A stretch of 64,000 bases of DNA from Chloroflexota bacterium (GTDB lineage: Bacteria > Chloroflexota > Anaerolineae > UBA1429), in the NCBI GenBank assembly GCA_019873625.1, contig JAIOAW010000003.1, positions 39,675 through 103,674 of the forward strand, read 5' to 3'. Of this stretch, positions 31,529 through 59,850 are shown one piece after another. The notes beneath the pieces were generated by a model, which did not search any database, was not told where the DNA came from, and saw nothing but the letters and a program-made list of their open reading frames with translations. Position numbers and translations under genes: made by a program. Positions within the stretch are counted from its first letter, which is position 1. Every line of letters starts with the position of its first letter.

Positions 31529-33901
31529 TTAGCGCCGCGCCAGGGCTACGATCCAGCCGATGAACCCCATCACGAGGATGGCGCCCAAGGCCAACACCAA
31601 GATGGGATCCGCCGGCCAATTGCGCCCGTAGTGCAGTTTCGGCGCAGGTTTGTATTTCAGAGAGGGGTCATCGGGCGATTTCAGCGAGGCCTCTTCCCCG
31701 GCCTTGACGGCGCCCTTTGGCCCCTTGGCCTCGGTGATGGTGCCCTTTTCATCAATGCGCTGATAGGTCGTCTCGAATTTTTGTGGTTTGGCCTCCGCGC
31801 GGAAGGCCGGGTTGGCCTTCAAGAACTGCTCTGTCTTGTAGGCGCTCACCTCAAAACGCACGGCCGTTCCCTCGGGGACGTAAATCCACTCCGGCGCGTC
31901 TTTGAGGTCGCCGGAAAAGACGGCCCCCGGAATCTGCGACTCGTATTCGCCCGTCTGATAGTTCAGCCCCACGTGGCGGCCTTGATCATCATAGGCGTGC
32001 AGGTCAATATCCGGCAAGGGGCCATCCACATTTGCCGTGACGGTGGGCGGCGCGGCGGGGGCGGGCACAGCGGCCGGGGCCACGACGGCGCCTACCAGGT
32101 TGGCGGGCGTGTACACGCGCGTGCTGACCACGGCCGTGTAGCCGTTGGCCGTGCTCTCGGAGTGAAGCACGAACTCTAACTTGCCCGCTGCCCATTGCAT
32201 CGTTTTCGAACCCGAGTGAAATGTGGGACGACGGTACTGCCGGCCGGCCGGCCCTGTGCCGGTAGTGCCCCCCGTTTGTGGCGTGATGGCGTTCACCACA
32301 TGGTGGGCATGGGTATTATCCCACGTGACCTGATAAAGGACGACGCCGCTTTCCGGGGCACCATACCAACCGCCCGCCTGGCGCGCCTCCAGAATGAAAT
32401 AACGTTCCGGGTGGGCCGAGGTGGGGTCATCTATGCGCAGCACCGTGCCCCCGTAGGATTGGTTCTCCAGCGCGGTGAGCGTGTACTCTTTGCCTAATTC
32501 GGCATCTACATAGTTCAGGTATTCGGCGGCGACTTTGGTGAAGGAGGACATATGGACTGGGTTCGAGGCAGCCGGGTCCCCCCACCAGTTGCCAGAACCC
32601 ATCAGGCCCCAGTTATTGATATTCCCATACTGGCCCCACGGCTGTTGATAGTTGTAACGGTCGCTGATGCGGTTCCACTTGCCCCATAGGATGTATTTGC
32701 TGTGGAGCGAGTGGCCTACCTCATGCGCCCAGAGGCCCAGGCCATCCTCCTCGGCCACGACGATGAGGCTCCCGGCGAAGACCTTGGCTCTAGCATCGGG
32801 CGGGCCTACTTCGATTTCGTGCCACATCCCGTTCGGCGGCCAAGAGCACAACGTCGAAAGCGGAGCGGGCGTTGCGGCATTATGGGCGGCCTGCTTCGAA
32901 GGCCCCGCATAGACGACGATAACCCGCGCCACGTTTATCTCCTCGCGAGGGGCGCCCGCCTCGAAGGCCTTTTTCACGGCGGCGATGGCGAAATCCCCTT
33001 CTTTGTTTTGGAAGTCGCTCAACCGCGGCCCCACGTTGTACCAATCCTGCGAACCGGTGTCGCCATCGGCATCCAGAAAGGTATAAGAGAGCACCACGCG
33101 GCCATACGAGTTCTTGCCGTAATAAGAGTTCACGTCTTGGGCGATCTTTTGAAAATGGCTGATGGGCTTGGCGCCGGGGACGTCGTCCGTCCCAGCGAGG
33201 ATGACCAGCGTATCGCCCAGGTCGCACAGGCCTTGGCGCTGAGCCGCCATATAGAGCGCGGCGGCGATATCATCCTCTGCGCCCTGGCCGGTGTCATCGC
33301 GCGCTACGAAGGTATGCGAGCCACACGTCCAGGCGATGTAGCCGGCTGTGGCCGTGGGGCAAGAGTCTGAAACGGCCTCTTCGCCGAAGGTATCCGTGAA
33401 AAACTTGCGGATGGCCTCGCTAAGGTAGCCCAATAGCCCGCCTGGGTTGCAGATTTGCTCGCCCGGCCGAAGGATGACCGCCTCGCGCCCCTGGTAGGAG
33501 GAATGCGGGAAGCCGTTCTCGACCATCTTATCTATGTAAAAGCGCCCGCCCTCTTCGCCCAGGGCGAGGATGCGGGCGTACTGGATGGTCTCTTCCTCAT
33601 AAGAGCCGCCGTTCGTAACCACGAATTTGCGCTTCAAGAAGTAACGTGCGGCGTTCTCCGGGGGCCAGAGCATAAAGACCGTGTCATCATCCGGGTCGAG
33701 TTGGTACAGCGGTTTGTGGGTGACGTTGTTTGGCCAGCCCAAGTTTTTGGCCACCTCGCGGAGGACGCGTTCCTCCGGCGAGCCGGGAGTTTCATCCGCT
33801 GGCCCTTGGGCCAGAGCGCCGGGCGCCACGAACACGATGATCGCCGGAATGCACAACAGGAGAAGCAAAACGGCTAGAAGAAAGCCGGGGTACCGCCTCA
33901 T
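31529..33901 (-). CDS. Secreted HExxH zinc metalloprotease (possibly M6/InhA-like) with a C-terminal transmembrane segment plus an Arg-Arg anchor.
   Basis: The start is taken at MRRYPGFLLAVLLLLLCIPAIIVFVAPGALAQG (signal peptide; ribosome-binding site AGGAGAG). The zinc-binding motif is GLWAHEVGHSLH. The C-terminus is PADPILVLALGAILVMGFIGWIVALARR. Confidence 0.5.
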   Translation of the reverse strand: MRRYPGFLLAVLLLLLCIPAIIVFVAPGALAQGPADETPGSPEERVLREVAKNLGWPNNVTHKPLYQLDPDDDTVFMLWPPENAARYFLKRKFVVTNGGSYEEETIQYARILALGEEGGRFYIDKMVENGFPHSSYQGREAVILRPGEQICNPGGLLGYLSEAIRKFFTDTFGEEAVSDSCPTATAGYIAWTCGSHTFVARDDTGQGAEDDIAAALYMAAQRQGLCDLGDTLVILAGTDDVPGAKPISHFQKIAQDVNSYYGKNSYGRVVLSYTFLDADGDTGSQDWYNVGPRLSDFQNKEGDFAIAAVKKAFEAGAPREEINVARVIVVYAGPSKQAAHNAATPAPLSTLCSWPPNGMWHEIEVGPPDARAKVFAGSLIVVAEEDGLGLWAHEVGHSLHSKYILWGKWNRISDRYNYQQPWGQYGNINNWGLMGSGNWWGDPAASNPVHMSSFTKVAAEYLNYVDAELGKEYTLTALENQSYGGTVLRIDDPTSAHPERYFILEARQAGGWYGAPESGVVLYQVTWDNTHAHHVVNAITPQTGGTTGTGPAGRQYRRPTFHSGSKTMQWAAGKLEFVLHSESTANGYTAVVSTRVYTPANLVGAVVAPAAVPAPAAPPTVTANVDGPLPDIDLHAYDDQGRHVGLNYQTGEYESQIPGAVFSGDLKDAPEWIYVPEGTAVRFEVSAYKTEQFLKANPAFRAEAKPQKFETTYQRIDEKGTITEAKGPKGAVKAGEEASLKSPDDPSLKYKPAPKLHYGRNWPADPILVLALGAILVMGFIGWIVALARR

Positions 33902-34470
33902 GGTGTAATCTCTCCTTGCACTGCGCGTCGGCGCCCCATAAGGCGCACCCAGAAAAAGAGGGATACGGCCGCTAAAATCGCGAGGCCCACATAAGCCCAC
34001 ACGTAACGGGGGCCAGCCCACCGATAGAGGGCATAGATGGCGCCCAACCATACGAGGTCCCACAGGAGGATGCGCAACGTTACGCCGAAGCACCCCATCC
34101 TGCGGCGCACGCGCACCCGCCCGCGGCGGCGCGCCTCACCGGCCTGCACGGGCTGAGCGGCGTAGGCTGGCGCACCGGGTGGGGCGGCGTACCCTTGGTA
34201 GGGGGCAGGCTCCACCGCCTGAGGTGGAGGCTGGGGCGCTGTGTAGGCGGGGGCCGGCGCTTGCTGGCCCGGCGGCGTGGCGGCCACCCATTGGCCTTCA
34301 TAGAAAACGAACCACTGCCCCGTGCGCTCCTGGATCATCCATAGGCGGCCCCATTCGTCCGTCACTTGGAGGGCGGCCAGTTGGGCGCGGTACTCCTCTT
34401 CGGTGAGGAACCCCGTCTGGCGCAGTTCCTCAAGGCGGCGAAATTCCCGTTCGGCCCGTTTGTAATCCAT
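33898..34470 (-). CDS. SHOCT-like domain membrane protein.
   Basis: The N-terminus MDYKRAEREFRRLEELRQTGFLTEEEYRAQLAAL is SHOCT-like. A Pro/Ala/Gln-rich linker and two C-terminal transmembrane helices follow. The stop overlaps the ATG of the protease gene. Confidence 0.4.
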   Translation of the reverse strand: MDYKRAEREFRRLEELRQTGFLTEEEYRAQLAALQVTDEWGRLWMIQERTGQWFVFYEGQWVAATPPGQQAPAPAYTAPQPPPQAVEPAPYQGYAAPPGAPAYAAQPVQAGEARRRGRVRVRRRMGCFGVTLRILLWDLVWLGAIYALYRWAGPRYVWAYVGLAILAAVSLFFWVRLMGRRRAVQGEITP

Positions 34471-34591: not shown

Positions 34592-35428
34592 TTACGCCGG
34601 CCAGGTCTGTTTGCCCCCATCTACGCGCAGGACTTGCCCGGTGATGTAAGAGGCAGCCGGAGAACAGAAAAAGGCCACCACGCGGGCGATCTCGATGGGG
34701 CGGCCGTAGCGCTCTAACGTGCCATCCGTTACGAGTTTTTCTTCCTCGATGGGGCGGCTGGCCACAAAGCGCGGGGTTACCGTATCTCCTGGGGCCACCA
34801 CGTTCACATAGACGTTGTAAGGCCGCATATTGAGCGCGAGGCAGCGCGAGTACTCGTGCACGGCGGCCTTGGCCGTGGAATAGATGGCCGATTGGGGGTT
34901 CCCGCCCAGCCCGGCGATGCTCCCGATGTTGACGATCCACCCCCGGCGGCGGGCCATCATCTCGGGGGCCACGGCGCGGCAGCAGAGGATGCAGGTGAGC
35001 AGATTGCGGTCCAGCACGGTGCGCAGGTCTTCGATGGAGATGTGGATGGCGTCGTTCCCCTCCGGTTTGCCGGCCAGGGGGGCGTTCACGCCGCGCGCCC
35101 CCACGTCGCCCCCGGCGCAGTTGACCAGGATGTCAATCTCCCCAAGGCCGGCGTGGATTTCTTCCACCAGGCGCTCTACGACCTCCGGCTGGGTCAAGTC
35201 GCCATATACCGGGAGCACGCGCACCCCGTGGGCGGCGGCCATTTGGCGCGCCACGGCCTCGAGCGATTCTCCCTCGCCAAAGGCCCGCGGCGAGGTGGGC
35301 GTAGTGCCGTGGATGGCGACGTCGGCGCCGAGTTCCGCTAGGTGGTCGGCGATGGCCCGCCCGATGCCGCGCGAAGAGCCGGTTACCCAGGCGATGCGCC
35401 CCGTCAAAAAGCGAACGGTCTCGATCAT
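34592..35428 (-). CDS. Short-chain dehydrogenase/reductase (3-oxoacyl-ACP-reductase-like).
   Basis: The cofactor-binding motif is [29 protein letters not shown]. The catalytic YxxxK is present. The start is ATG (MIETVRF) preceded by GGGAGG. Confidence 0.85.
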
Positions 35429-35570
35429 CCGCCCTCCCCGATCTTTACAGAATGTTTCATCCCAGGGGGCCAAAGGGGGTTGCCTTGCCCCTCGGTTGAT
35501 GATATAATCGCCGCACATAGGTAGAGTGTCAAGGTACCTTTTCCGCTCCCCGTAGCGATTGGAGAGACCC

Positions 35571-44798: not shown

Positions 44799-45962
44799 TT
44801 AGGGCTGCGGGCAGGCTTGGGGATCGTACGGCTGCCCCTCTTCGAGCACGCCCCGCACGATGAGCATCCATTCGCTGATGGGGATGTTCTGTGGGCATTT
44901 CGGCTCACAGGTGCGGCACTGGATGCATGCCGAGGCACGCCTCTCTTGAGAGAAAAAGCGCGCATAGAAACGCCGCGTCTCCTCGATTTGGTTGAACATC
45001 ACAGCGTTGTTAAATGTCGTGAAATTCTCGGGGATATCCACGCCGTTGGGGCAGGGCATACAGTAGTGGCAGGCCGTGCACGGGATGGGGCACAGCGAAC
45101 GGTAGCGGTCGCGGGCGCGATGGATCGTCTCCAGTTCCTCTGGGGTGAGCGTGCCCACGCCCGAGCGTTCGGCGCTGGCCACGTTCTCGATGACTTGTTG
45201 GAGGGTGCTCATCCCGCTCAAGACCACCGAAACCTCCGGCTGGTTCCACAGCCACTGGAGTGCCCAGTCGGCGGGCGTGCGCCGCACGGGGGCTGATTCC
45301 CACACTTCTTGGACGGCCGGCGGCGGGGTGACGAGCCTCCCGCCCAAAAGCGGCTCCATAACCACAACGCCCATCCCTTTCGAGGCGGCATAGCGCAGGC
45401 CCCGCGTGCCCGCCTGGTATTCCTCGTTCATATAGTTGTATTGGATTTGGCACATATCCCAATCGAAGGCATCCACGATCTCGCGAAAGGCCTCGAACGT
45501 ATCGTGGAAGGAAAAGCCCGCCAGGCGGATGCGCCCTTCGCACCGCTTTTTATCTAAAAAGTCGAGCACGCCCAGATTGTATGCGGCCAGCCAACGTTCG
45601 CGGCGCAGGCCGTGGAGGAGATAACAGTCGAGGTGATCCGTCTGCAAGCGTTCCAACTGCTCGTTGAAGAGGCGGTCAAAATCCTCGTACGTTTGCGCGG
45701 CGGGCAGCCACAACTTGGTGGCCAGCACCACGCGGTCGCGGCGCCCTTGGAGGACGCGCCCCAGGAATCGTTCGCTATTGCCCCCATGGTAGCCGTAAGC
45801 CGTATCGAAATAGTTCACGCCGTGCTCGATGGCGTAATCCACCATACGGGTCGCCTCGGGTTCATCAATCACATCGTGCGTGCCGCGAATCGGCAAGCGC
45901 ATACAGCCGAACCCCAGCGCCGAAACGCGCACTCCAGAACGCCCTAATACACGGTACTGCAT
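44799..45962 (-). CDS. Aldo/keto reductase fused to a 2x[4Fe-4S] ferredoxin domain (paralog of 28329-29420).
   Basis: An aldo/keto reductase barrel is followed by CPIPCTACHYCMPCP and CIQCRTCEPKCP. The ribosome-binding site is AGGAGGTG. Confidence 0.7.
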   Translation of the reverse strand: MQYRVLGRSGVRVSALGFGCMRLPIRGTHDVIDEPEATRMVDYAIEHGVNYFDTAYGYHGGNSERFLGRVLQGRRDRVVLATKLWLPAAQTYEDFDRLFNEQLERLQTDHLDCYLLHGLRRERWLAAYNLGVLDFLDKKRCEGRIRLAGFSFHDTFEAFREIVDAFDWDMCQIQYNYMNEEYQAGTRGLRYAASKGMGVVVMEPLLGGRLVTPPPAVQEVWESAPVRRTPADWALQWLWNQPEVSVVLSGMSTLQQVIENVASAERSGVGTLTPEELETIHRARDRYRSLCPIPCTACHYCMPCPNGVDIPENFTTFNNAVMFNQIEETRRFYARFFSQERRASACIQCRTCEPKCPQNIPISEWMLIVRGVLEEGQPYDPQACPQP

Positions 45963-46034
45963 CGGACACCTCCTATCGGTGATGAGTCAAAGAGCGCCCC
46001 TCTTTTATATTCCATTTTGCCCGCCTAGGCAAAG

Positions 46035-46063
46035 GCAAAGCGCTTGACGTTCGAACGCTTGTT
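46035..46063 (+). promoter_or_regulatory. Sigma70 promoter TTGACG-17-TATACT, with a Cheo-type LexA SOS box CGAACGCTTGTTCG (46043-46056) inside the spacer.
   Basis: Read directly from the sequence. The box is a perfect match to CGAAC-N4-GTTCG. It lies 33 nt upstream of the first helicase-like gene. Confidence 0.65.
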
Positions 46064-46095
46064 CGCTATACTGCGCGCACTGATCAGGTGGAGAA

Positions 46096-48246
46096 ATGGC
46101 CCCATTTGATGACCTGGCCCAGGAATTGACGCCCGAACAGCGGCGCGTCGTCTCTTTCGCCCGCGAGGGGGGTGCGAGCCTCTTGGTGCGGGGCCTGCCC
46201 GGCACGGGCAAGACGACGGCCCTGGTGCGCCGCTTGGCCGCGATGGTGAGCGAGGGGCGCCGGCCGTATGAAATCCTCGTCTTGGTACCCCAACGCGCCC
46301 CTGGAGACCGCTTCGAGCGCGCCCTCTCGGTGCTGCAAGCGCCCACGCGCGGCGGCGCCGAAATCGTTACATTCTACAGCCTCTCGCGCCGGGGCGTGGC
46401 CCTCTTTTGGCCGCTGGTGGCCGCTCAGGCGGGTTTTGCCCACCCGGAGCGCGAACCCGTCTTCCTCACGTTGGAGACGGCCCAATATTATATGTGGCGC
46501 ATCGTCGAGCCGCTCATCCGTGAACAGGGCTATTTTAACGATTTGGCCATCCCACGGGGGCGGCTCCTTTCGCAACTCATTGATAACTTGAACAAGTCGG
46601 CGCTCGTCGGGTTTGACCATACGGATATCTATGCCCGGCTGCGGGGGGCTTGGGTGGGCGCCCAAGATCGCCTCCATCGCTTTTGGCAGGCCCAAGATTG
46701 CGCGACGCGCTTTCGCGCCTTTTGCTTGGAGCACAATCTGCTCGATTTCTCGCTGACGACGGAGGTCTATTGCCGTTACCTCCTGGCGAACCTCGTCTAT
46801 CGGCGCTACGTGCAGGCGCGCTATCGCCACCTCATCGTAGATAACCTGGAAGAAAACGTCCCCGTGGCCCAAGATTTCATCGCTTGGATGCTCACCTGGT
46901 GCCAGTCGGCCGTGCTGGCCCTCGACGAGCGGGGCGGGCATCGCATCTTCTTGGGGGCCGATGCCGAGGGCGCCCTGGAGGTGGGGCAGCGCTGCCAAGA
47001 GACCCTCTCCCTATCGCGCCTCCTGAAGCCTACCGAGCACCTGCTGGCCTTTGTGGATGCGGTGAACGCCAATATCGGCGCGCGCGCCGCGCCGGCTGCG
47101 CCCCAAGGCGAGGCGCACCGCGCCACGGTGGTGAGCGGCGGCGGAGAGACGCGCTATTGGATCAGTATGCTCCGTTGGGTGGCCGAGCAAGTGGCCGCTT
47201 TGGTGGCCCAGGGCACGGCCCCTGGCGAGATCGCCCTCATCGCGCCCTATGTGAGCGATGTGATGCGCTTTGCCGTGGAAGAAGAACTCGCCCGTTACGA
47301 TATCCCCGTGCACCTTCTGCGCCCGGCCACCCCTTTGCGCGATGACCCCATCGTCCGCGGACTCCTCATTCTCCTCTGCCTGGCGCACCCCCATTGGGCG
47401 CTAGAGTTCGGCGGGGAACCGTATGCCCTCTCTGAGGAGGACGTGGCGCTCGCCCTCAAGGTGGCGCTCGCCGGCCTGGACCCCCTCCGCGCGCGCTATC
47501 TGGCGCTGGAGGCCTGGCGCGGCGAAGGCCTTCTTCCCTTGGCCGATTCGGCCCCAGCCCGTTTGTGGGAGCGCGTGGGCTTTCAGGTGCGCGAGCCTTA
47601 CGAGACCTTGCGCTCGTGGTTAGAGACGTACCGCCAAGGCCCGCCAGAACCGCTGGATATCCTCCTCAGCCGCCTGTTCGGCGATCTCCTTTCGCGGCCG
47701 GGGTTCGGCTTCTATCAGCAGCCGGAAGCGGCGCGCGCCTACGGCCGGCTGGTCGAATCCACGCGCAAATTCCGCGAGGCGGTAATGAGCGATGGCGAGG
47801 ACCCCACGCGCGTGGCGCGCGAGTACGTTCAACTCGTCCTGCGGGGGGTAGCGAGCGCCGAATACCTTCTGGATTGGCCTCGCCCGCCTCGCCCCGATGC
47901 GGTCATCCTTGGGCCAGCCTATGCCTACATCACGCGCGATATGCGCTCCGAGTACCAATTTTGGCTCGACCTCGGCTCCGATGGCTGGCTGAACCGCCCC
48001 AATCAGCCGCTGACGCACCCTTACGTCCTCTCGCGGCGCTGGCCCATTGGCCGGCCCTGGCGAGATGTGGAGGAAGAGGAGGCGCGCCGCGAAACCTTGG
48101 CCCGCGTCCTCACGGGGTTGGCGGCGCGCTGTAACCGAGGGCTGTATTTGGCCTTCAGCGAACTCGGCCTGGACGGTGCGGAGCAGCGCGGGCGCTTGCA
48201 AATGGCCATCGTAACCGTCTTGGCGAGGATAAAGCGCTATGCCTGA
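46096..48246 (+). CDS. UvrD-like helicase-family protein with a degenerate motif II (AddB-like ATP-binding subunit lacking a nuclease domain).
   Basis: Walker A is GLPGTGKTT and motif Ia-like is LVLVPQRAP. The motif II position reads HLIVDNLEEN instead of DExx. Length is 716 aa. The stop overlaps the next gene's ATG by 8 nt. Confidence 0.6.
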   Translation: MAPFDDLAQELTPEQRRVVSFAREGGASLLVRGLPGTGKTTALVRRLAAMVSEGRRPYEILVLVPQRAPGDRFERALSVLQAPTRGGAEIVTFYSLSRRGVALFWPLVAAQAGFAHPEREPVFLTLETAQYYMWRIVEPLIREQGYFNDLAIPRGRLLSQLIDNLNKSALVGFDHTDIYARLRGAWVGAQDRLHRFWQAQDCATRFRAFCLEHNLLDFSLTTEVYCRYLLANLVYRRYVQARYRHLIVDNLEENVPVAQDFIAWMLTWCQSAVLALDERGGHRIFLGADAEGALEVGQRCQETLSLSRLLKPTEHLLAFVDAVNANIGARAAPAAPQGEAHRATVVSGGGETRYWISMLRWVAEQVAALVAQGTAPGEIALIAPYVSDVMRFAVEEELARYDIPVHLLRPATPLRDDPIVRGLLILLCLAHPHWALEFGGEPYALSEEDVALALKVALAGLDPLRARYLALEAWRGEGLLPLADSAPARLWERVGFQVREPYETLRSWLETYRQGPPEPLDILLSRLFGDLLSRPGFGFYQQPEAARAYGRLVESTRKFREAVMSDGEDPTRVAREYVQLVLRGVASAEYLLDWPRPPRPDAVILGPAYAYITRDMRSEYQFWLDLGSDGWLNRPNQPLTHPYVLSRRWPIGRPWRDVEEEEARRETLARVLTGLAARCNRGLYLAFSELGLDGAEQRGRLQMAIVTVLARIKRYA

Positions 48247-50506
48247 AACCCTCTTTGGCTATCGGCTGAGGCGCGCGCAAGAGGCGGTGATGCGCTACGA
48301 AGGGGGGCGCATGGCCATCTCGGCGGTGCCCGGCAGCGGCAAGACCCTGACCTTGGCGCTCTTGGCGGCCAAGTTGATCATCGAGGGGAAGGTCGGCCCT
48401 GCGAGCGAGGTCTTGGTGGTTACGGTACAAAATTCGGCGGTGGATAACATCTCTCAGCGCATCCGCCGCCTATTGACGGAACAAAAACTGCCGCCGGTGG
48501 GCTACCGCGTGTGTACGTTGCACAAATTGGCGAGCGACATCCTACGCCGGCGGATGGATTTGGCGGGTGTGGCCGATGACCTCGTCATCGTGGATGATGC
48601 GGAATCCGACCGGATGATGCGCAACGCCGCTGAGGTGTGGCGGCTCAACCACGCGGCCCTGTGGGCGAGTTTCCTCCCGGTGGATTGGCAAGGGGGGCGC
48701 GATCGGCTGGAAAAGGAGTGGCTTGAGGAGATGGTGCGCATCGGCAAGGAGGTGACAAAACTCTGCAAGCACCTGCGCTTTACCCCGGAACGGGCACGGG
48801 AGTTTGTCGAGGCGCACCTTGCCGATGCCGAGATGACGCGCCTGGGCGTGGCCTTGTATGACCATTACGATCGCACGCTTAGGGCGAGGGGGGGCTTGGA
48901 TTTCGACGACCTCATCTGGCGGGCGATTGACGCGCTGGAGCAAGACCCCTCCTTTGCCGAAAACTTGCGCCAGCGCTGGCCGTACATCCTGGAAGATGAG
49001 GCGCAGGATAGTTCCCCCTTGCAGGAAAGCATCTTGCGCCTCCTTTGCGGCGCAGATGGCCACTGGGTGCGGATGGGCGACCCGAACCAGGCCATCAACG
49101 CCACCTTCACCGCCGCCGACCCGCGCTTCTTCCGGCGCTTTCTCGAAGAGCCGCACGTGCGGCGGCTGACCCTCCCCGAATCGGGCCGCTGCGCCCGGCC
49201 CATCCTAGAGATGGCCAATGCGCTCGTCCGTTGGGCGAGCCGCGAGCACCCCGAGAGGGCCATCCGTGAGATGGCCTTCGAACCGCAGGAGATCATCCCC
49301 ACCACGCCAGAAGATGCCCAGCAAAATCCGCCAGCCGAGGAGTGCCGCATCTATTTTCGGGCCGAGCCGTTCGACAAGGTGGATGAGGAGGCCCAGTTTG
49401 TGGCCAGGGCGGCGGCGAATTACATCAAGCGATATCCCCATCACGCTGTGGCCGTCCTGTGCCCGGCGGCGTGGCAGGGCGCCAAGGTGGTGGAGGAGTT
49501 CAAGCGCCTGCCCAAGGTGCCCTATGAGGACCTTTTGCGCACCACGCCCGAGGCGCGCAACGTCGCCCGGCTCTTGGCTGCCGCCTGCCGTTACGTCGGA
49601 GACCCCACCCAAACGCGCCCTTTGGTGGCGCTCTGGCGCGAGTTGGCGTTAGCGGGCCTCTGGGGAGAGGTGCCTGCGAGCCGAGTGCGAGACGTTTCGA
49701 CCATCTTGCGCAGTGTAGCGTTCCCCGAGTTCTTTTTCCCTAGGGCGACGTTAACGCTCGCCGAACGCTTGCCCGAGAACGTCTCCCTCTCGCCGGAGGA
49801 TGAGGCGCTCTTGGGGCGCTTTACCGCCTTAGTGGGGCGCTGGCTGAGGGCCGCCGATTTGCCCATAGACCAGATGCTCCTCGCGATGGGGCAAGACCTC
49901 TTTGGCGAGCGCGATGAGGACCTGGGGGCGCTGGCCATCTGCCACACCCTGGCGCTCAAGATGCGCACCCTCGCGCAGATTCACCCCGAAATGCGCCCCC
50001 ACGAGTATGCCAGCGAGTTGGAGGCCATCGCCCAGAACCGCCGCACCCTGCAAGAACTTGCCCTGCCCGATGCGGCCTACCTGACCAAGCCGGGCGTCAT
50101 CGTGGTAACCACGATGCACAAGGCCAAGGGGTTGGAGTGGGATGCGGTGTACCTGATGTGCGTGGATAGCCTGGAATTCCCCGCCACGGTGGATGACCCC
50201 TCGCGCGACGAACCGTACTATATGCCGGGCCGGGCGCCCGCCCTGGAGGCGCGCAAACGCCTGGAACGGGCCGCTGAAGAGGGAGTCTACACGGAAGGGA
50301 CGGATGAGGTGATCGCCCAGGGGCGGTTAGAGACGATCGCCGAGCGCCTTAGGCTGCTCTACGTTGCCATCACGCGGGCGCGGCGCAACCTGGCCTTCAC
50401 CTGGAGCCGGCACAATGGGAGCCGCCCCGTGGAGCCAGCCCTGGCGCTGAGCGTGCTACGCGCTTGGGCGGAGACAGCCCGTGCGGAGGAGGGGCTATGG
50501 CCTTGA
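48239..50506 (+). CDS. UvrD/PcrA-family ATP-dependent DNA helicase.
   Basis: Walker A is AVPGSGKT, motif II is ILEDEAQDSS, motif III is GDPNQAI and motif VI is VAITRARR. Length is 755 aa. No nuclease domain is present. Confidence 0.85.
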   Translation: MPETLFGYRLRRAQEAVMRYEGGRMAISAVPGSGKTLTLALLAAKLIIEGKVGPASEVLVVTVQNSAVDNISQRIRRLLTEQKLPPVGYRVCTLHKLASDILRRRMDLAGVADDLVIVDDAESDRMMRNAAEVWRLNHAALWASFLPVDWQGGRDRLEKEWLEEMVRIGKEVTKLCKHLRFTPERAREFVEAHLADAEMTRLGVALYDHYDRTLRARGGLDFDDLIWRAIDALEQDPSFAENLRQRWPYILEDEAQDSSPLQESILRLLCGADGHWVRMGDPNQAINATFTAADPRFFRRFLEEPHVRRLTLPESGRCARPILEMANALVRWASREHPERAIREMAFEPQEIIPTTPEDAQQNPPAEECRIYFRAEPFDKVDEEAQFVARAAANYIKRYPHHAVAVLCPAAWQGAKVVEEFKRLPKVPYEDLLRTTPEARNVARLLAAACRYVGDPTQTRPLVALWRELALAGLWGEVPASRVRDVSTILRSVAFPEFFFPRATLTLAERLPENVSLSPEDEALLGRFTALVGRWLRAADLPIDQMLLAMGQDLFGERDEDLGALAICHTLALKMRTLAQIHPEMRPHEYASELEAIAQNRRTLQELALPDAAYLTKPGVIVVTTMHKAKGLEWDAVYLMCVDSLEFPATVDDPSRDEPYYMPGRAPALEARKRLERAAEEGVYTEGTDEVIAQGRLETIAERLRLLYVAITRARRNLAFTWSRHNGSRPVEPALALSVLRAWAETARAEEGLWP

Positions 50507-51327
50507 TCGAAGCGGGGCACCTTTTCAGCCAGCACAGCCTCAACACCTATCTGCGGTGCAAGCGCCGTTTTTGGCTGAAATACATCGCACAACAACCCTG
50601 GCCTATGCCCGAGCAGGAAAATCTCTCGGAATATCAGGCGCACCTGGCACGGGGGCGCACCTTTCATCAATGGGTGGCGCGGGCGCTCTTGGGCGTGGAT
50701 GCCGATCTCCTGGGCCAAGCGGCCGCCGCCTGCGGCGATGAGGCGCTCCTTGCGTGGTGGCTGGCCTTTGGGCGGTTTGACCTTTCGATTGTGCCGGAGG
50801 GCCTGCGCGAAGTGGAGTTGCCGCTCATCGTGCCCTTGGGGGAATATCGCCTCTATGCCCGTTATGACCTCGTGGCCTTTTCGCCTTCGGGCGAGGCCGT
50901 CATCGTAGATTGGAAAACCTTGGAACGCCTGCCCTCTTGGCGAGTGATGCGGGAGCGCGTGCAGACGCGCGTTTACCTTTACGTGCTCGCTTCAGCCGGG
51001 CACATCGTAACCGGCGGCGCACCGCTGGACCCCTCCCGCCTGGAGATGATTTACTGGTTCGCCCCCTTTGAAGAGATGTTTCGCATTCCCTATTCGCGGC
51101 GCGAGTTTCAAGCGCATCGGCAGGCCCTGCTACGCCTGGTGGAAGAGATCGCGGCCTCGCCGCCGGAGGCCTTTGTTCCCACCGAAAACCCACGCGAATG
51201 CGCCTTCTGCAACTACCGCAGCCTGTGCGGGCGCCAAGAGGCCCCCAGAGACCCCTCTCTCAACTGGCTCGACGAGGAGATAGATTTCGCCCTCGATCTC
51301 GACGAGGCCATCGAGATGACCTACTAA
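50496..51327 (+). CDS. PD-(D/E)XK nuclease with a Cas4/AddB-type iron-sulfur cluster (four Cys).
   Basis: The Cys pattern is LRCKRRF ... ECAFCNYRSLCG (Cx2Cx5C). The nuclease motifs are RYDLVAF and IVDWKT. The ATG overlaps the upstream stop (ATGGCCTTGA) and follows GGAGGAGGGG. Confidence 0.75.
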
Positions 51328-51356
51328 TCCCCTTGGGCGGCCGTGCCCCGCGGCGC

Positions 51357-52133
51357 TCAGATGAGGAGGTCTTGTAGGCGATTAGCGCGTTTGATGAACG
51401 TGCCGGCCTCCACTTGTTCGCAGCCCCGTGCGAGGTAGGTTTGGGCATCTATATGGCCGCAGGTGCGGATCTCTTGCGTGTAGGGCGGCCCCGCGATGAC
51501 GAAAGGCGCGACCTCGCGATAGTGCGCGGTGGCCTCCGCGGCCACATCGCGGATGAGGTCGCGGGCATCTTCCGGGGCCAAGTGAAGGGCCACCTGCGCC
51601 CCCAGGCCGATCTTGACCTGCGCGCCATAGATGCCTGGGATGAGGGCACGCGCCTCGGCCATCATCTTGTCATCGCCGCTCACAAAGACGGTGGGCACGC
51701 CGAAACTCCCCGCCAGGGCCGCACGGCAGCCGAATTCGCCCAACTCTAACCCATTGATGCGGTACCAGAGGATGGTCGTGGAGGAGTAGGTGTGGGCCAG
51801 GTTTGCGCCGGGCGTGCCGGCCTTGGCGTGCTGGCCGAGGAAAAAGAGGGCGTCAAAAGTCTCATCCAAAAAGGCGGGCGGGGAGACGGGGCCGTTGTTG
51901 ATGAGTTTGGCGCCCCGTGGGAAGCGCTCGAAATCTATCGAGCCGCAGCCGTGGGCATCCCACACCCAGATTTCGCCGGATGGCTCCACGGCCTGAATGC
52001 CCGCGACGCAGGCGCGGAGTTCCTCCGTCATAAGGCGCACGGCCTGCGGGTAACCGGGGGTATCTCGCCCGGTTTGATCCCAGCGGGCCACACCGGCTAC
52101 CCCTTCGAGATCGGTGAGGATATAGATTTTCAT
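51357..52133 (-). CDS. M55-family D-aminopeptidase (DppA-like).
   Basis: The N-terminus MKIYILTDLEGVAGV is typical of DppA. The ribosome-binding site is AAGGAG. Confidence 0.7.
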   Translation of the reverse strand: MKIYILTDLEGVAGVARWDQTGRDTPGYPQAVRLMTEELRACVAGIQAVEPSGEIWVWDAHGCGSIDFERFPRGAKLINNGPVSPPAFLDETFDALFFLGQHAKAGTPGANLAHTYSSTTILWYRINGLELGEFGCRAALAGSFGVPTVFVSGDDKMMAEARALIPGIYGAQVKIGLGAQVALHLAPEDARDLIRDVAAEATAHYREVAPFVIAGPPYTQEIRTCGHIDAQTYLARGCEQVEAGTFIKRANRLQDLLI

Positions 52134-53937: not shown

Positions 53938-56900
53938 TCAACTCGGGGAGGATGCGACGATAACAGGTATAAAGAACACCTCCTCACCGCATTGCAGGCC
54001 CAGGCGGCACGGTTCGGTTGGGGGGTAAGGGCCATTCCACTGCACGGCCAGGCGCACGCTCTTGCCGGGTTTGATATCCACCCGATCGCGCGGCAAGGCA
54101 AGGTAGGGCGGTTCGGCCCACAAGGTGATATGCGCGGCGGCCAAACCTCGGTTGTGAAGCACCAGCCGCCCTTGCGGGGCAGCACCCGGCTCGGGCGCCG
54201 TTAAGCGCAGTTCTTGAGGAACCTCGAGTTCGGGGGAGCGTTCGACGCTCAGTGCGGCCTCGATGTTCAGGTCTCCGCCGTTACTTTCCACCGTGATGAG
54301 CGCCACGTCATGAGGGGCTTCGGCGGGGAATTCCTCCATATCGCTCCTCACGTGGATTTCGACGGAGCGCCCTGTGGGGCACTCGAAAGAAACGCGGTCG
54401 AGCACCAGCCAGAGGCGGTCGGCGCGGAGGGTGCCTTTGAGCGTGCCCAGCCCATAATTGAAGAGGCGGAAGGAGCCGCTCACCGGCGCCAGGTTGCGCG
54501 AGGTGCCCAAATCCAGCCGAGGCGTGTCGGTCGAGAGGCGCGGCGAGGCGATGCCGGCCCGCAGGGGGATTTTGGCCCGGCCGCCGTCGCTCGTGATAAT
54601 AAGCGCCCCTTGGGCGCCCTCGGCGCCCGGTTCGATGGCCAGAGCGTAGGCCGTCAGCGTGAGAGGGGCGGCCTCTCCCGGCGCGCAGGTGCCTTCGCGG
54701 GGAGAGATTTCCAGCCAGAGGGCGTCCGTCTGGGCGACCCAGGCAAGAGGCCCTGTGCCCTCGTTGGCGAGGGTGACGATCCGCGTGGCCGGCTCGACGG
54801 GGTCGAGATAGCCGAAATCCACCGCTTCGGGTTCCACGTGCAGGGCCGGCTGTTCGACCAGGAGCGAGGCGCTCACTTCAAAGGTGCGCGGCCCCGCCGC
54901 GATGCGCAGGGCTGCGGGCACCTCTAACGCCTGGCCGCGCGCGAAAAAGGCCGTGTTCGCCCGGATGGAAAGGGTTACACTCCCCTGGGGCGGGCAATGC
55001 ACCCACTCCCGTTCGGGGGAGAGCCACTCCACTTGCGGCTGAAGGTGCGCATCGAACGGGGCGGAGCCTTCGTTCCGCAAAGTCAAGGGGCGCGTCGCGC
55101 TCTCGCCGAGGGGCACGGTGCCAAAATCGAGGTGCCGCGTCTCCAAAATGGGGAGAGGGTTCACCACCTGGGCGCGCAGAGAAAGGGTGGCCGTGCCGCC
55201 GTTCGTTTGCACGCGCACGGCCTGCGGCACTTCGAGGAGGCCATCTCGCACCGCAGAGGCATCCAAGGTGACGGAGCACGGCACGAGTTCCCCTGGCGGG
55301 CAGCGGAACTCTTGCGGCGAGACCGCTAGCCAGGGCACCAGGCTGCGGCAGGTGCCCACAAGCGGGGCATCTCCGGTGTTGCCGATGAAGAGGAGCCGTT
55401 CGGCCGCCTCGCCGCCCCGCACGGTGCCGAAATCCATATGCAGGGCGCCCAGGTCCAATTCGGCCACCTGCCGCCAGGCGCGCACGGCGATGCGCGCTTG
55501 GCCGCCATCCGTATCGAGCAGGAGGCCCTCTTCGACGGCTTGCTGCCCGCGCGGCATTTTGGCCGCCTCGGCGTGCACCTGCAGGCGCAAAGCGCTGCCC
55601 GGCGGGCAGCGGAAGGCCATCGGCTCTGGGCGCAGCCAGGGGAGCCGGGAGACGGCCTGGCCCGTCAGCATCTGCCGGCCGATGTTCTTGACCGTCAAGG
55701 CGAGCGTGCCGCGCCCTTCCCCTTGGAAGGTGCCGAAATCGAGCGCCAACGGTTCCACCTCGAGCACTGGCCCGACGTAGGTCTCCGCCGTAACGCCCAC
55801 CCATTGACGGCCGGCGTTGCCCTCGACGGAGAGGGCCTGCGGTTCGATGGTGCGGCCGGGGGTAAGGCCGTCAGCCAAGAGGGTAACGATGACTTGGGCC
55901 TGTTTGCCCGGCGCTAGGCGAAAGGCCTGGGTGGGCGCGCGCAGCCAGGGGACGTGGCTCACGATATGCCCGGCCCATTCCCCTTCGCCGGCGTTATGCA
56001 ATTTGAGCACGAGCCGGCGTTTTTCGCCCATCTTGAGGTCTGTGGCCTTGAGCGCCAGGGGTTGGATGGATAGCCGGGGCAGGGGTTGCGGTTCCGCTTC
56101 GATAGCCGTCTTGATCGGCGGCGGCGCGGGCTGAACCCCATAGCGCGGGTCTGGGATGAAGCCCAAATCCACCATCGAGGGGATGTCTCCGGCAGTTGCC
56201 GAGGGTGCGAGCACTGGGCGCACGTTGGCGCCGGCCGATGAGGCTTGCGCGAACCAATCGGCCACCGGCGTGAGCGGCCCACGGGGCGGCTCCCAAAGGG
56301 CGTCTCGCAATTCGGCCAGGGAGGCGAAGCGTTGGGCGCTATCGCGCTCGGCGGCGCGGGCGATGGTGCGCACCAGTTGCGCCGAGATGCCCGGCACGGC
56401 CTGCCGCAAGGGAATGGGGCGGGCCAGGCCCCTTTCCAAGGGATATTGGATGAGCAGGGCATAGAGGGTGCGCCCTAGGGCAAAGCCATCGGTGAGCGGG
56501 CTAGGGGGCGTGCGGCCCAATTCGGGGGCCGCATAGCCCGGGAGGCTCCCATAGGGGCCATATGCCGTGGGGTTAAAGAACTGCCCCAGGCCAAAGCCCA
56601 CGATTTTCACCACGCCCTCCGTGCTCACGATAAAGTGGGCCGGCGCCAGGAATGGCGCATAGAGGGGAGGGTTCTGGCTATGCAAGGTGTGGAGCGCATC
56701 CGCCAACTGGGCGCCCCAATTGCGCGCCAGGTCTGGCGTAACGCGCAGGCCGCTCTCTTCGATGAGGCGCTGGCCGCTCCAGCCGTTCACAAATTCCAAG
56801 ATGACATAATATCGGTCGCGTTCGGCGAACCAATCCAAGATGCGCGCGAGGCCCGCGTGCTCTACGCGCCCCCAACGTTCCAGGGCGGTATAGAGGGCGC

Positions 56901-57267
56901 GCTCTGCCTCACGGCGCTCATCGGGCCGGAACATAGCGACGGCCGAAATCTCTTTGACGCAGACCGTTTGGCCCGTTCGGCCATCGGTGGCGCGATAGAC
57001 GGCCGTTACGCGGCCAGAGGCGAGGGGTTCGCGGAGGATGTATCGGTCGCGCAGCGTGCGCTGTTCGGGGGCACCGCGAAAGAGGTCTGCAAACGAACGC
57101 GCATCCGCAGAGGCGGCGTCACAGCGGGCGCAGCGGGGCACATACCACGGCCGGGGCGTTCCGCAAATGGGGCAGTATTGGACGAGGGGCGCGCGGCAAT
57201 AGGCGCAGGCCGTAGCCCCTGGGTCGTTGAGTTGATTGCACTTGGGGCATCGGAGTTTCGTCGCCAT
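53938..57267 (-). CDS. Double zinc-ribbon / Ser-Thr pseudokinase / seven DUF1573 (ASH, PapD-like beta-sandwich) repeats. Cytoplasmic.
   Basis: The zinc ribbons are CPKC..CAYC and CPIC..CARC. The kinase fold has VCVKEI and APEL, but the HRD position reads LYAPFLAPAH and the DFG position reads GFG. Seven repeats of about 100 aa follow the pattern L(D/H)FGTV..G......L.L.N.G. Confidence 0.7.
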   Translation of the reverse strand: MATKLRCPKCNQLNDPGATACAYCRAPLVQYCPICGTPRPWYVPRCARCDAASADARSFADLFRGAPEQRTLRDRYILREPLASGRVTAVYRATDGRTGQTVCVKEISAVAMFRPDERREAERALYTALERWGRVEHAGLARILDWFAERDRYYVILEFVNGWSGQRLIEESGLRVTPDLARNWGAQLADALHTLHSQNPPLYAPFLAPAHFIVSTEGVVKIVGFGLGQFFNPTAYGPYGSLPGYAAPELGRTPPSPLTDGFALGRTLYALLIQYPLERGLARPIPLRQAVPGISAQLVRTIARAAERDSAQRFASLAELRDALWEPPRGPLTPVADWFAQASSAGANVRPVLAPSATAGDIPSMVDLGFIPDPRYGVQPAPPPIKTAIEAEPQPLPRLSIQPLALKATDLKMGEKRRLVLKLHNAGEGEWAGHIVSHVPWLRAPTQAFRLAPGKQAQVIVTLLADGLTPGRTIEPQALSVEGNAGRQWVGVTAETYVGPVLEVEPLALDFGTFQGEGRGTLALTVKNIGRQMLTGQAVSRLPWLRPEPMAFRCPPGSALRLQVHAEAAKMPRGQQAVEEGLLLDTDGGQARIAVRAWRQVAELDLGALHMDFGTVRGGEAAERLLFIGNTGDAPLVGTCRSLVPWLAVSPQEFRCPPGELVPCSVTLDASAVRDGLLEVPQAVRVQTNGGTATLSLRAQVVNPLPILETRHLDFGTVPLGESATRPLTLRNEGSAPFDAHLQPQVEWLSPEREWVHCPPQGSVTLSIRANTAFFARGQALEVPAALRIAAGPRTFEVSASLLVEQPALHVEPEAVDFGYLDPVEPATRIVTLANEGTGPLAWVAQTDALWLEISPREGTCAPGEAAPLTLTAYALAIEPGAEGAQGALIITSDGGRAKIPLRAGIASPRLSTDTPRLDLGTSRNLAPVSGSFRLFNYGLGTLKGTLRADRLWLVLDRVSFECPTGRSVEIHVRSDMEEFPAEAPHDVALITVESNGGDLNIEAALSVERSPELEVPQELRLTAPEPGAAPQGRLVLHNRGLAAAHITLWAEPPYLALPRDRVDIKPGKSVRLAVQWNGPYPPTEPCRLGLQCGEEVFFIPVIVASSPS

Positions 57268-58101: not shown

Positions 58102-59157
58102 ATGGCGTATTCAGAGGCTGCCTATTGGCTGGCGGCGCTTTCGGCGCAAGCGCCCCCTCGGCGCGTGGTCAAACGAGCGCTCTATGCCTGGTGCATCGAG
58201 GGAGGGCGGTCAGCGGCGGACCTTTTCGGGGCTTCCGCTGAGGATATCGCGCAAGAGTGCGCCATACAGCCGGACGAGGCGCGGGCCATCCTAGCGGCGG
58301 GTGCTTTATTAGAACGCGCCCAAAGGTCGCTGGACGAGTTGGCCCGGCGGGGGGCGCGCGTGGTTACGCGGGCCGATGAGGCTTACCCGGACGATTGGGC
58401 GCGCCTCGGCGAGGAATGGCAACCCTATTATGCCGTTTGCCGGGGCGATTTGGCCATCTTGACCGAGCCGGGGGTGGCCGTGCTGGGCGCAACCCACCCC
58501 GATGCGGAGACGGCCAGCCTGGCCCAGGCGCTCGCGCAGTGGCTCGCCGCAGAGGGGCACTACCTCGTGGGCGGGTATGACGAGGGCGTAGACCGCCTCG
58601 CCCTCGAGGCCGCCGCGCAGGCCGGCGGCGCTACGGTGCTCGTCTTGGCGGAGGGGTTGCTGCAGAATCGGCCCCTCCTCGAGGCGGAAGGGGCGCGCCC
58701 AGGGGCCTTGCGGCTTGTGCTCAGCCCATTCGCGCCCGAGGCGCCTCGGCGAGAAAATCAGGCCGTGGCACGGCGGGCGCTCATCTTGGCCCTGTGCGGG
58801 GCTGCCTTTTTCCTGGCGCCCGATGAGGGGCCGGAGCGCTGGCCGCTCATCGGCGAACTTGCGCGCGGGGGGCTGGGCCTTTTTCTGTGGCAAAGGGGTG
58901 AGGAGCCGCTCCCGCCCGAATGGGCTGCGCTCGGCGCGCGGCCCTTCAGGGGGCTGGGGGACCTGCGCTATGCCCCGCCCACGGAGGCGGCGCCCCTCTT
59001 GCGCCTGGGAGAAGCGGAGGCCGAAGGCCCTGAAGCGCCGCCCATCGCCTTTCGAGATGCTCAAGAGGCCATTGCCCGCCTGGGCCAAACGGGCAAGGTG
59101 CCCGAGAAACTGGCCAAACGCCTGCGCGCGACGCTGCCCAAAGGCTCGGCGGAATGA
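58102..59157 (+). CDS. dprA: DNA-processing protein DprA/Smf-like.
   Basis: The Rossmann DprA-domain pattern is GVAVLGATHPDAE...LVGGYDEGVDRLALEAA..AGGATVLVLAEGL...RENQAVARRALILALCGAAFFLAPDEG. Confidence 0.6.
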   Translation: MAYSEAAYWLAALSAQAPPRRVVKRALYAWCIEGGRSAADLFGASAEDIAQECAIQPDEARAILAAGALLERAQRSLDELARRGARVVTRADEAYPDDWARLGEEWQPYYAVCRGDLAILTEPGVAVLGATHPDAETASLAQALAQWLAAEGHYLVGGYDEGVDRLALEAAAQAGGATVLVLAEGLLQNRPLLEAEGARPGALRLVLSPFAPEAPRRENQAVARRALILALCGAAFFLAPDEGPERWPLIGELARGGLGLFLWQRGEEPLPPEWAALGARPFRGLGDLRYAPPTEAAPLLRLGEAEAEGPEAPPIAFRDAQEAIARLGQTGKVPEKLAKRLRATLPKGSAE

Positions 59158-59211
59158 TCGGGTTGGGCCGACCTAGGGATCTGCCCACCACACTGCTCAA
59201 AAGGGGTGACG

Positions 59212-59850
59212 ATGAACTTTCCCGATCGCCTTGATTTGAGCCAGGCCCTTCCGCCCTGGCTGCGGAGTTTGCTTTCGCTGGGGTTGACCATCAGCGCGGC
59301 GGTGCTCTATGCGGGGGTGCTCGGCATCGCCATCGTGCGCACCTGGCAAGAGCCAGACCCAGCCTTCTCTTCGACGATGGTGCGCGCTGCGAGCGTGCTC
59401 AGCGGGTTAGTGGGGGGCGTGGTGGCCGCCGGGTTCTCGCAGAGCCGCCGGCAGGTGCCCATCCAGGTGAAGGCGCAGGCGCCCGATGACCCCTCTCAAG
59501 AGGTCACTTGGACCACATATCGCCCCGTATCCCTCTTTAAGCGCAATTTTCTGGGCCTGGGGCGAACCCTCGGTATGCCGGTGTTCTCGCTTGGCCTCCA
59601 ATTCTCCTCGGATGACGAGGAACCCGCCCTTCCCCCGGAGGAGGCCATCCGCGAGCCGGCAGCCAACAAACTTGTGATGGGGGTGGCCCTCCTCTATTTC
59701 GTGATCTATTTCGTGGTGGGGGTGGCCGCTTTTGCCCTCACCCTTTTGCGCCCCACCGTGCCCGAGATCATCTCCAACGCGGGTTGGGTGTGGCTGGGCA
59801 CGGTGGCTACGGCGGGCTACTCGTTCTTTGCGCTGGATAGCCAGGCCTAG
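59212..59850 (+). CDS. Hypothetical membrane protein.
   Basis: Four predicted transmembrane helices. No recognisable motif. The ATG is 6 nt after AAAGGGG. Confidence 0.3.
   Translation: MNFPDRLDLSQALPPWLRSLLSLGLTISAAVLYAGVLGIAIVRTWQEPDPAFSSTMVRAASVLSGLVGGVVAAGFSQSRRQVPIQVKAQAPDDPSQEVTWTTYRPVSLFKRNFLGLGRTLGMPVFSLGLQFSSDDEEPALPPEEAIREPAANKLVMGVALLYFVIYFVVGVAAFALTLLRPTVPEIISNAGWVWLGTVATAGYSFFALDSQA

Follow-up and report, generated by a model that had tools for sequence, protein, structure and literature searches.

The 64,000-nucleotide (64-kb) stretch of Anaerolineae DNA analyzed here (Chloroflexota bacterium, contig JAIOAW010000003.1; hereafter the window) carries an operon of three plus-strand genes, g1, g2 and g3. 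g1 (46096–48246; 716 amino acids, aa) encodes a UvrD-fold protein predicted to be an ATP-binding, non-motor subunit; g2 (48239–50506; 755 aa) encodes a UvrD/PcrA-type superfamily 1A (SF1A) helicase predicted to be a 3'–5' motor; and g3, running from an ATG at 50497 to 51327 (276 aa), encodes a stand-alone PD-(D/E)XK nuclease of the RecB/Cas4 family. g1 and g2 overlap by 8 nucleotides (nt; ATGCCTGA) and g2 and g3 by 10 nt (ATGGCCTTGA), and each of the three start codons is preceded by a purine-rich ribosome-binding site; a Shine–Dalgarno-like GGTGGAG (46087–46093, plus strand), as read from the sequence, lies just 5' of the g1 start codon. An earlier description of this DNA (the first-pass annotation) had proposed three translationally coupled plus-strand genes, and the positions of the open reading frames (ORFs) and their overlaps, including the 8 nt shared by g1 and g2, bear this out. 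All of the motifs it quoted are found in the translations of g1, g2 and g3; its 11-nt g2/g3 overlap and 277-aa g3 need correction to 10 nt and 276 aa. We propose, with a probability of about 0.6, that the operon encodes a LexA-repressed, three-subunit SF1A helicase–nuclease whose role is to process the ends of broken DNA ahead of RecA-dependent repair.

Matches to PF00580 (1.8e-42) and PF13361 (2.1e-18), together with intact motifs I–VI, place g2 among the UvrD/Rep/PcrA (SF1A) helicases. Walker A, motif II (DEAQD), motif III (GDPNQ), the arginine of motif IV (SGR), and motifs V and VI are invariant in 15 orthologs. Neither Pfam nor NCBIfam detects a nuclease domain in the whole protein or in its inner segment, and the two NCBIfam AddA models, with cut-offs of 707.65 and 860.75, give g2 scores of 70 and 66 bits. 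The Pfam content and the motif invariance uphold the initial description of g2 as a complete UvrD/PcrA helicase without a nuclease. Among solved proteins, g2 is closest in sequence to UvrD1, PcrA, Rep and UvrD; AddA and RecB rank lower.

g1 gives only a weak Pfam match, to PF00580 (E = 1e-7, aa 11–250). Its AlphaFold (AF2) model, with a predicted local distance difference test (pLDDT) score of 87, has the full four-domain SF1A fold, and the chain ends at helicase motif VI. A nuclease domain had been held to be lacking from g1, and neither the Pfam and NCBIfam searches nor the model reveals one; when the inner stretches of g1 and g2 that carry no domain assignment were scanned on their own, no family matched. 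Cryptic nuclease domains in either protein were rejected on these searches and on the g1 model.

The ATP site of g1 combines an intact Walker A motif (GLPGTGKTT) with a motif II that reads DNLEE where UvrD-type helicases have DExQD. In a profile alignment to UvrD, HLIVD-N-L-E-E of g1 falls on ILVD-E-F-Q-D; the catalytic glutamate of motif II is replaced by asparagine and the glutamine of motif III by glycine, and the arginine position of motif IV is not conserved. Across 30 members of the g1 family Walker A is nearly invariant, and D249, N250, E252 and E253, which form a D-N-x-E-E signature, are invariant or nearly so. Many of the invariant residues fall outside the ATP site. With Walker A kept and the catalytic glutamate replaced across the family, g1 is a conserved paralog that probably binds nucleotide without hydrolyzing it, and not a decaying gene; the proposal that g1 retains its P-loop and has lost hydrolysis thus gains support from the UvrD alignment and the family-wide signature.

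The affinities of g1 do not point to one known subunit. No NCBIfam AddB model matches at E ≤ 0.1, the g1 profile matches AdnA residues 247–432, and the model is structurally nearer to Rep and PcrA than to AddB. When g1 and g2 are compared by BLASTP only the P-loop region aligns, and the two are therefore not recent duplicates. Because Rep and UvrD are at least as near to g1 as AddB is, the inactivation of g1 may be independent of that in AddB and RecC.

g3 matches PF12705 (9e-28; 98.3 bits, cut-off 22). Four cysteines (C21, C235, C238 and C244) are invariant in 21 sequences and follow the pattern C-X(n)-C-X2-C-X5-C, and D124, D138 and K140 (D..D-x-K) and Q156 and Y160 (Q...Y) are invariant in the same number. 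By these residues g3 is a member of the iron–sulfur PF12705 branch of PD-(D/E)XK nucleases, with a predicted cluster, which agrees with its first description as a RecB-fold nuclease carrying an iron–sulfur signature. A Foldseek search with the AF2 model (pLDDT 85) ranks the iron–sulfur nuclease domain of AdnA best, followed by ACE1, Cas4 SSO0001, Dna2, Exo5 and AddB; structure comparison also shows a resemblance to MGME1 as well as Exo5, and a sequence search matches the AdnB nuclease domain. An identity as the Cas4 of CRISPR adaptation is not supported, with TIGR00372 at 33 bits (cut-off 65), PF01930 at 14.9 (cut-off 22.7), and no cas genes found in the neighborhood. All 120 g3 homologs among the matches listed are stand-alone proteins of ∼275 aa, unfused to any other domain.

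Relatives of g1 are present in at least 579 species genomes (one genome scanned per species), almost all from Anaerolineae, and the best 80 of these, among them the cultured Anaerolinea thermolimosa, make up the set of loci compared below. The protein collection holds more than 2000 relatives, of which the named ones belong to Anaerolineae, Anaerolineales or Chloroflexota and carry product names such as 'hypothetical' or 'UvrD-helicase domain-containing'. An exhaustive search returns 312 clusters at E ≤ 1e-30; among the 150 best cluster representatives, full-length relatives measure ∼650–770 aa and none has the length of AddB or AdnA. The order g1–g2–g3 is kept in most of the 80 loci with enough sequence, so that the three-gene unit first noted in the window recurs across genomes. 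g1 and g2 overlap in 37 of 69 loci (∼20 of them through an identical 8-nt ATGnnTGA) and g2 and g3 in 20 of 43, and the order and the overlapping stop and start codons persist in relatives down to ∼40% identity. A constant fusion of g3 to g1 homologs, which the first-pass annotation had said would betray a local split, is never seen, nor is a fusion of any pair of the three genes in any locus examined. The triad is a conserved unit of the Anaerolineae, near-universal there and not a local accident, and g1 is, judged by its residue conservation, under strong purifying selection.

Two contigs in this set carry labels from other phyla, L017 ('uncultured Pleurocapsa sp.') and L071 ('uncultured Thermotogae'). 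Both have typical Anaerolineae-type cassettes at 62–69% G+C and are probably mis-binned; L017 (62.5% G+C) was accordingly rejected as a cyanobacterial ortholog and is probably an Anaerolineae contig. Insertions between g1 and g2 (L015, L021, L025, L026, L029, L034, L036, L041, L042, L044, L048, L055–L057, L061, L065, L069 and L076) abolish translational coupling and leave both genes in place. A conserved fourth gene in these gaps was also rejected: the inserted ORFs are unrelated and differ from locus to locus.

Clustering of all neighbor genes of the 80 loci yielded one further recurrent family, recJ, identified by TIGR00644 (479–499 bits, cut-off 396.9). In ∼30 of the 43 g3-holding loci, by tblastn, it is the next gene 3' of g3 in the same orientation, and the two genes often abut or overlap; examples, all above the TIGR00644 cut-off, are found at 7377–9713 in L013, 6744–9107 in L033 and 11156–13459 in L063. 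Four genes thus make up the cassette in its most frequent form. The window and its closest relatives (L002–L009), a sub-clade that instead has a LexA operator, lack the recJ linkage. The linkage in most relatives is an addition to the first-pass annotation, which had only the window in view; it strengthens the end-resection reading and is its strongest functional clue.

The four-gene cassette also occurs outside the phylum. Plasmid pSR56 (56 kb) of Salinibacter ruber M8 (Rhodothermota) carries g1–g2–g3–recJ in the same order (L202; NC_014028.1, 7950–15833), annotated in turn as a hypothetical protein, an ATP-dependent helicase, a PD-(D/E)XK nuclease and recJ. Its g1 homolog is 36.6% identical over 96% of the protein and keeps every g1 signature residue. 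The cassette lies 3' of an XRE-family regulator gene and near toxin–antitoxin and recombinase genes. Finding the same four genes in order on pSR56, we conclude that the cassette has been transferred whole from one phylum to another. pSR56 is the sole plasmid among 72,556 with both g1 and g3, and no phage matches to the cassette were found.

Upstream of g1, the only σ70-like site within 45900–51500 is TTGACG-17-TATACT, with the −35 hexamer TTGACG at 46044–46049 and the −10 hexamer TATACT at 46067–46072, both on the plus strand. A predicted LexA operator, the perfectly palindromic Cheo-type box CGAACGCTTGTTCG, occupies 46052–46065 within the 17-nt spacer. This promoter and its embedded box had been recognized before; the box, previously placed at 46043–46056, lies 9 nt further to the right. 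It is the only perfect match in the window. The GAAC-N4-GTTC core also occurs once, against a mean of 0.67 per window in shuffled sequence, and what mainly supports the placement of the box is conservation among relatives rather than this count of one. The box lies between the −35 and −10 elements in seven of the eight closest loci with upstream sequence (the window, L002, L003, L004, L005, L008 and L009). In the seven aligned promoters TTGAC, CGAAC, GTTC and ATACT are invariant, and the N4 core and the flanks vary: the predicted operator is a classic phylogenetic footprint.

Box-like sequences in more distant relatives take two forms. L065 (42% identity) has a one-mismatch box, CGAACGACTGTTCT, ∼20 nt 5' of the g1 start and directly after a −10-like TAAAAT hexamer, and LexA control may therefore have arisen more than once in the g1 family. 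L021 (5323–5336) and L041 (11853–11866), distant relatives of the window, each have a perfect CGAAC-N4-GTTCG site within the coding sequence of g2, where the same conserved stretch of peptide is encoded; these are probably coding by-products and not operators.

A scan of metagenome contigs for TTGAC-N3-CGAAC-N4-GTTC-N3-ATACT gave at least 120 matches (L082–L201). Among the 120 listed, 94 carry the unspecified G that completes the palindrome, 41 adjoin lexA, and 11 precede g1 homologs (52–71% identical). The listed matches also lie upstream of genes for DUF222/HNH (18), LexA (9), LysM (8) and NrdR (6) proteins, of IMS-family (DinB/ImuB-type) polymerases (3), and of a DnaE2-type polymerase, AlkZ and RmuC. 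TetR regulators, HigB toxins and phage-type integrases are further downstream genes in this list. Many of the contigs have 69–73% G+C and may stem from other phyla. The operator-linked LexA of L085 shares 74% identity with LexA of Phototrophicus methaneseepsis, and the names attached to its relatives are Anaerolineae or Chloroflexota; an exact look-up of several LexA proteins, mostly uninformative, assigned one operator-linked LexA to Planctomycetota. Variants of a GAAC-N4-GTTC LexA motif have been reported for Chloroflexi (PMC4951493). The operon thus has two marks of an SOS-regulon member, a conserved palindrome overlapping its promoter and an operator shared with lexA and SOS genes. Absence of LexA, which would have undercut the idea, is not the case in this class, where an Anaerolineae-type lexA has the same promoter-embedded operator. 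From the sequence we infer that the operon is LexA-repressed and damage-inducible.

What was computed directly comprises domain content and motif states, the family-wide retention of gene order and coupling, the linkage to recJ, and an operator footprint associated with lexA and other SOS genes; from these a working mechanism can be outlined in which the three proteins would form a physical complex. DNA damage would cause LexA to cleave itself and leave the spacer operator, and g1–g2–g3 would then be transcribed and co-translated. g2 would be the sole working motor, tracking 3'-to-5' on one strand to unwind the duplex, with g1, binding ATP without hydrolysis, serving not as a motor but as a scaffold, strand guide or regulator, like the helicase-like parts of AddB, AdnA and RecC. 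g3 would cut the displaced 5' strand, like the nuclease domains of AdnA and AddB. Since no nuclease would target the 3' strand, a single-stranded 3' tail would be left for RecA. RecJ is a 5'–3' single-stranded-DNA exonuclease and, where its gene is linked, would extend the removal of the 5' strand.

Several observations weigh against this reading. g2 is no closer to AddA, AddB or AdnAB than to UvrD, Rep or PcrA, and g1 is as near to Rep, UvrD and PcrA as to AddB, by sequence and by fold; the likeness to AddAB, as an analogy, is one of architecture and not of descent. The cassette is also not always compact. In ∼6 of 60 informative loci g1 stands without g2 or g3 within 6 kb, and in ∼19 loci 0.65–3.3 kb of unrelated genes lie between g1 and g2. 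Relatives at 40–50% identity mostly lack the LexA box, and only the sub-clade of the window has the predicted LexA control; neither lexA nor recA is found within the window. Canonical AddAB, RecBCD or AdnAB, if present in the same genomes, could leave the cassette a narrower or different role. A likeness to a set of cyanobacterial genes, finally, points to a possible role against foreign DNA.

Taken further, that likeness would make the cassette mainly a barrier, degrading incoming linear or plasmid DNA or feeding a defense pathway, which we consider unlikely. RecBCD degrades phage DNA, and Cas4-like, UvrD and RecJ-type proteins appear to act alongside Argonaute in cyanobacteria; g3 is as near to the Argonaute-associated Cas4-family protein ACE1 and to Cas4 as to the AdnA and AddB nucleases. 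In PADLOC, g2 and g3 are matched by the GajB and Cas4 models, and the one plasmid copy of the cassette sits beside toxin–antitoxin and recombinase genes. A functional parallel comes from a transposon screen in Synechococcus elongatus, in which mutants that lack uvrD, Synpcc7942_0992, recJcy or a cas4-like gene maintain RSF1010 better and are more readily transformed, with near-equal fitness values for three of them (Taton et al. 2023, PMC10653904). However, this set (UvrD, the 665-aa COG0210 protein Synpcc7942_0992, a 775-aa RecJ paralog and a Cas4-like nuclease) is likened to the cassette by its parts list; its genes are dispersed, and the phenotype is one of plasmid maintenance and transformation, not repair. 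The PADLOC models are generic, and GajA, Argonaute and CRISPR genes are not adjacent. A known defense system such as Gabija was rejected on the same grounds, with only generic GajB and Cas4 matches and no OLD-family GajA partner nearby. The distribution of the family is not patchy: within one class it is near-universal and, for the most part, syntenic. It has no phage representatives and almost none on plasmids, and its operator is common to g1 homologs, lexA and translesion polymerase genes. Occurrence in at least 579 genomes, ordinary metabolic neighbors, the lack of phage matches and a single cassette in 72,556 plasmids suggest a housekeeping character. A barrier function would in any case be compatible with an end-degrading enzyme, not opposed to it.

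We give still less credence to three co-expressed but independent proteins that form no single machine: g2 as an accessory UvrD/PcrA paralog (in fork clearing, excision repair or RecA-filament removal), g3 as an Exo5/Cas4-like flap or end nuclease, and g1 as a regulatory or vestigial paralog. The better sequence matches of g2 to UvrD1, PcrA, Rep and UvrD than to AddA and RecB, the likeness of g3 to Exo5 and MGME1, and the genomes that part g1 from g2 and g3 or insert genes between them all fit such an arrangement. Conserved order and overlapping codons down to ∼40% identity nevertheless argue for stoichiometric co-production, the set has moved as a unit to another phylum, and the purifying selection on g1 is unlike that of a vestigial gene. 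A local artefact, in the form of a frameshifted canonical addAB or adnAB or a pseudogene, has next to no chance of being correct. Nothing beyond an overall resemblance in domain inventory favors it, and it runs against same-sized separate ORFs in every related locus, the stand-alone g3 homologs, the ∼650–770-aa length of g1 relatives, invariant catalytic and structural residues, and NCBIfam AddA and AddB models that stay below cut-off. A frameshifted addAB, which the first-pass annotation had named as a way for its reading to fail, was rejected together with a pseudogene on this family-wide ORF structure, since g1, g2 and g3 are separate in every locus examined.

The operon is flanked by a divergent aldo-keto reductase gene and a convergent M55 peptidase gene. 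The genes around it encode an aldo-keto reductase, peptidases and a kinase, and the wider window holds ordinary metabolic and signaling genes, with no mobile-element, CRISPR or defense-island marks in its 64 kb. A DprA/Smf-family gene (a recombination mediator; DNA_processg_A, 3e-19) lies ∼7 kb 3' of the operon at 58102–59157 on the plus strand and lacks a LexA box. On the minus strand, 53938–57267 encodes a 1108-aa protein with an N-terminal zinc ribbon, a Ser/Thr kinase domain and several Ig-like repeats (HYDIN/ASH/BACON-type). Four ORFs have no Pfam match at E ≤ 1e-4 and are well supported by high third-position G+C: 25319–25948 (minus strand, 208 aa), 31529–34093 (minus, 853 aa), 34884–35507 (plus, 207 aa) and 59206–59850 (plus, 214 aa).

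Anaerolineae are abundant yet little studied in sediments, digesters and hot springs, and the cassette is class-wide there. A role in end resection would, if correct, reveal the start of recombinational repair in a large bacterial class, provide a natural one-nuclease design that yields 3' tails without Chi control, and give another example of a helicase that has become a non-motor subunit. The promoter-embedded operator offers an entry point to the Chloroflexota SOS regulon, and the promoter–operator pattern could seed an SOS-regulon survey.

To our knowledge, helicase–nuclease machines for end resection come in three forms, RecBCD, AddAB and AdnAB, all with nucleases fused to helicase-like chains. 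The cassette departs from each. g2 is not an AddA, which joins an SF1A helicase to a C-terminal RecB nuclease in one chain, and g1 is not an AddB, in which an inactivated helicase is fused to an iron–sulfur nuclease. Neither the two subunits of AdnAB, each a UvrD-like motor with a RecB-like nuclease, nor the RecBCD arrangement of a RecB motor and nuclease, a RecC dead helicase with a dead nuclease fold and an SF1B RecD motor is found. No equivalog model comes near its cut-off, and the first-pass annotation was right to place the operon outside canonical AddAB, RecBCD and AdnAB. Open-access papers on Anaerolineae or Chloroflexi helicase–nucleases, the Anaerolinea SOS regulon and 'AddAB-like' systems held nothing relevant.

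AdnAB appears to be the nearest working model for g1–g2–g3. In that enzyme AdnB is the lead motor and AdnA an ATP-binding, motor-like subunit for which motor activity has not been shown, and the iron–sulfur nuclease of AdnA cuts the 5' strand (PMC13000450). By analogy, AdnB, the single lead SF1A 3'–5' motor, would correspond to g2 and the N-terminal, trailing ATP-binding part of AdnA to g1, and the C-terminal iron–sulfur RecB-type nuclease of AdnA is the best structural match of g3. AdnA and AdnB are, however, each a motor and nuclease in one chain of ∼1050–1100 aa, whereas here the nuclease is a separate protein of 276 aa, the lead motor g2 has none of its own, and one nuclease replaces two. 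The cassette also has three genes instead of two, recJ is linked in most relatives, and the window operon would be under LexA.

Bacillus-type AddAB offers a second comparison. It too pairs one active motor with an inactivated helicase-like subunit that keeps Walker A, a pairing that is read here from motifs alone (all invariant in g2; Walker A kept and the catalytic glutamate changed to asparagine in g1). It shares with g3 an iron–sulfur RecB nuclease with one N-terminal cysteine and a C-terminal C-X2-C-X5-C. In AddAB each chain, AddB as well as AddA, includes a nuclease, whereas g1 and g2 have none; the inactive helicase and the iron–sulfur nuclease are split over two proteins, g1 and g3, in every locus. 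The initial picture of an AddAB-like enzyme with a divided AddB accordingly holds as an architectural analogy; descent from AddB is not shown, with g1 equally close to Rep, UvrD and PcrA.

Pairings of RecQ or UvrD with RecJ, of the RecF-pathway type, likewise combine a 3'–5' helicase with a 5'–3' single-strand exonuclease to leave a 3' tail, and recJ is coupled to or abuts g3 in ∼30 related loci, though it is unlinked in the window itself. We know of no RecF-type helicase and RecJ that form a dedicated operon with a dead helicase paralog and an iron–sulfur nuclease. Predicted operons of an unfused UvrD and a stand-alone PF12705 (Cas4-like) nuclease have been described in Clostridiales as non-defense systems with a proposed repair role (Hudaiberdiev et al. 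2017, PMC5704561). Compared by description only, these differ in having two genes, in another phylum, with no degenerate second helicase, recJ or LexA operator mentioned.

The cassette is distinctive in its free nuclease subunit, its nuclease-less lead motor, a dead helicase nearer to UvrD than to AddB or RecC, and a RecJ that is usually co-transcribed. We tentatively suggest, at somewhat less than even odds, that it represents a fourth, hitherto unrecognized class of machine for resecting double-strand breaks in bacteria. This would be a heterotrimer in which an active UvrD-type motor joins an independently inactivated UvrD-like subunit and a free iron–sulfur nuclease, ancestrally co-expressed with RecJ; it would be the main end-resection system of the Anaerolineae and, with its single nuclease for the 5' strand, would produce 3' tails with no need of a Chi-type switch. 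The uvrD/0992/recJcy/Cas4-like set of S. elongatus may be a dispersed counterpart. Judged by its predicted proteins and operator, the cassette is an uncharacterized, class-wide and SOS-linked variation on the helicase–nuclease theme that falls in neither the AddAB nor the AdnAB family.

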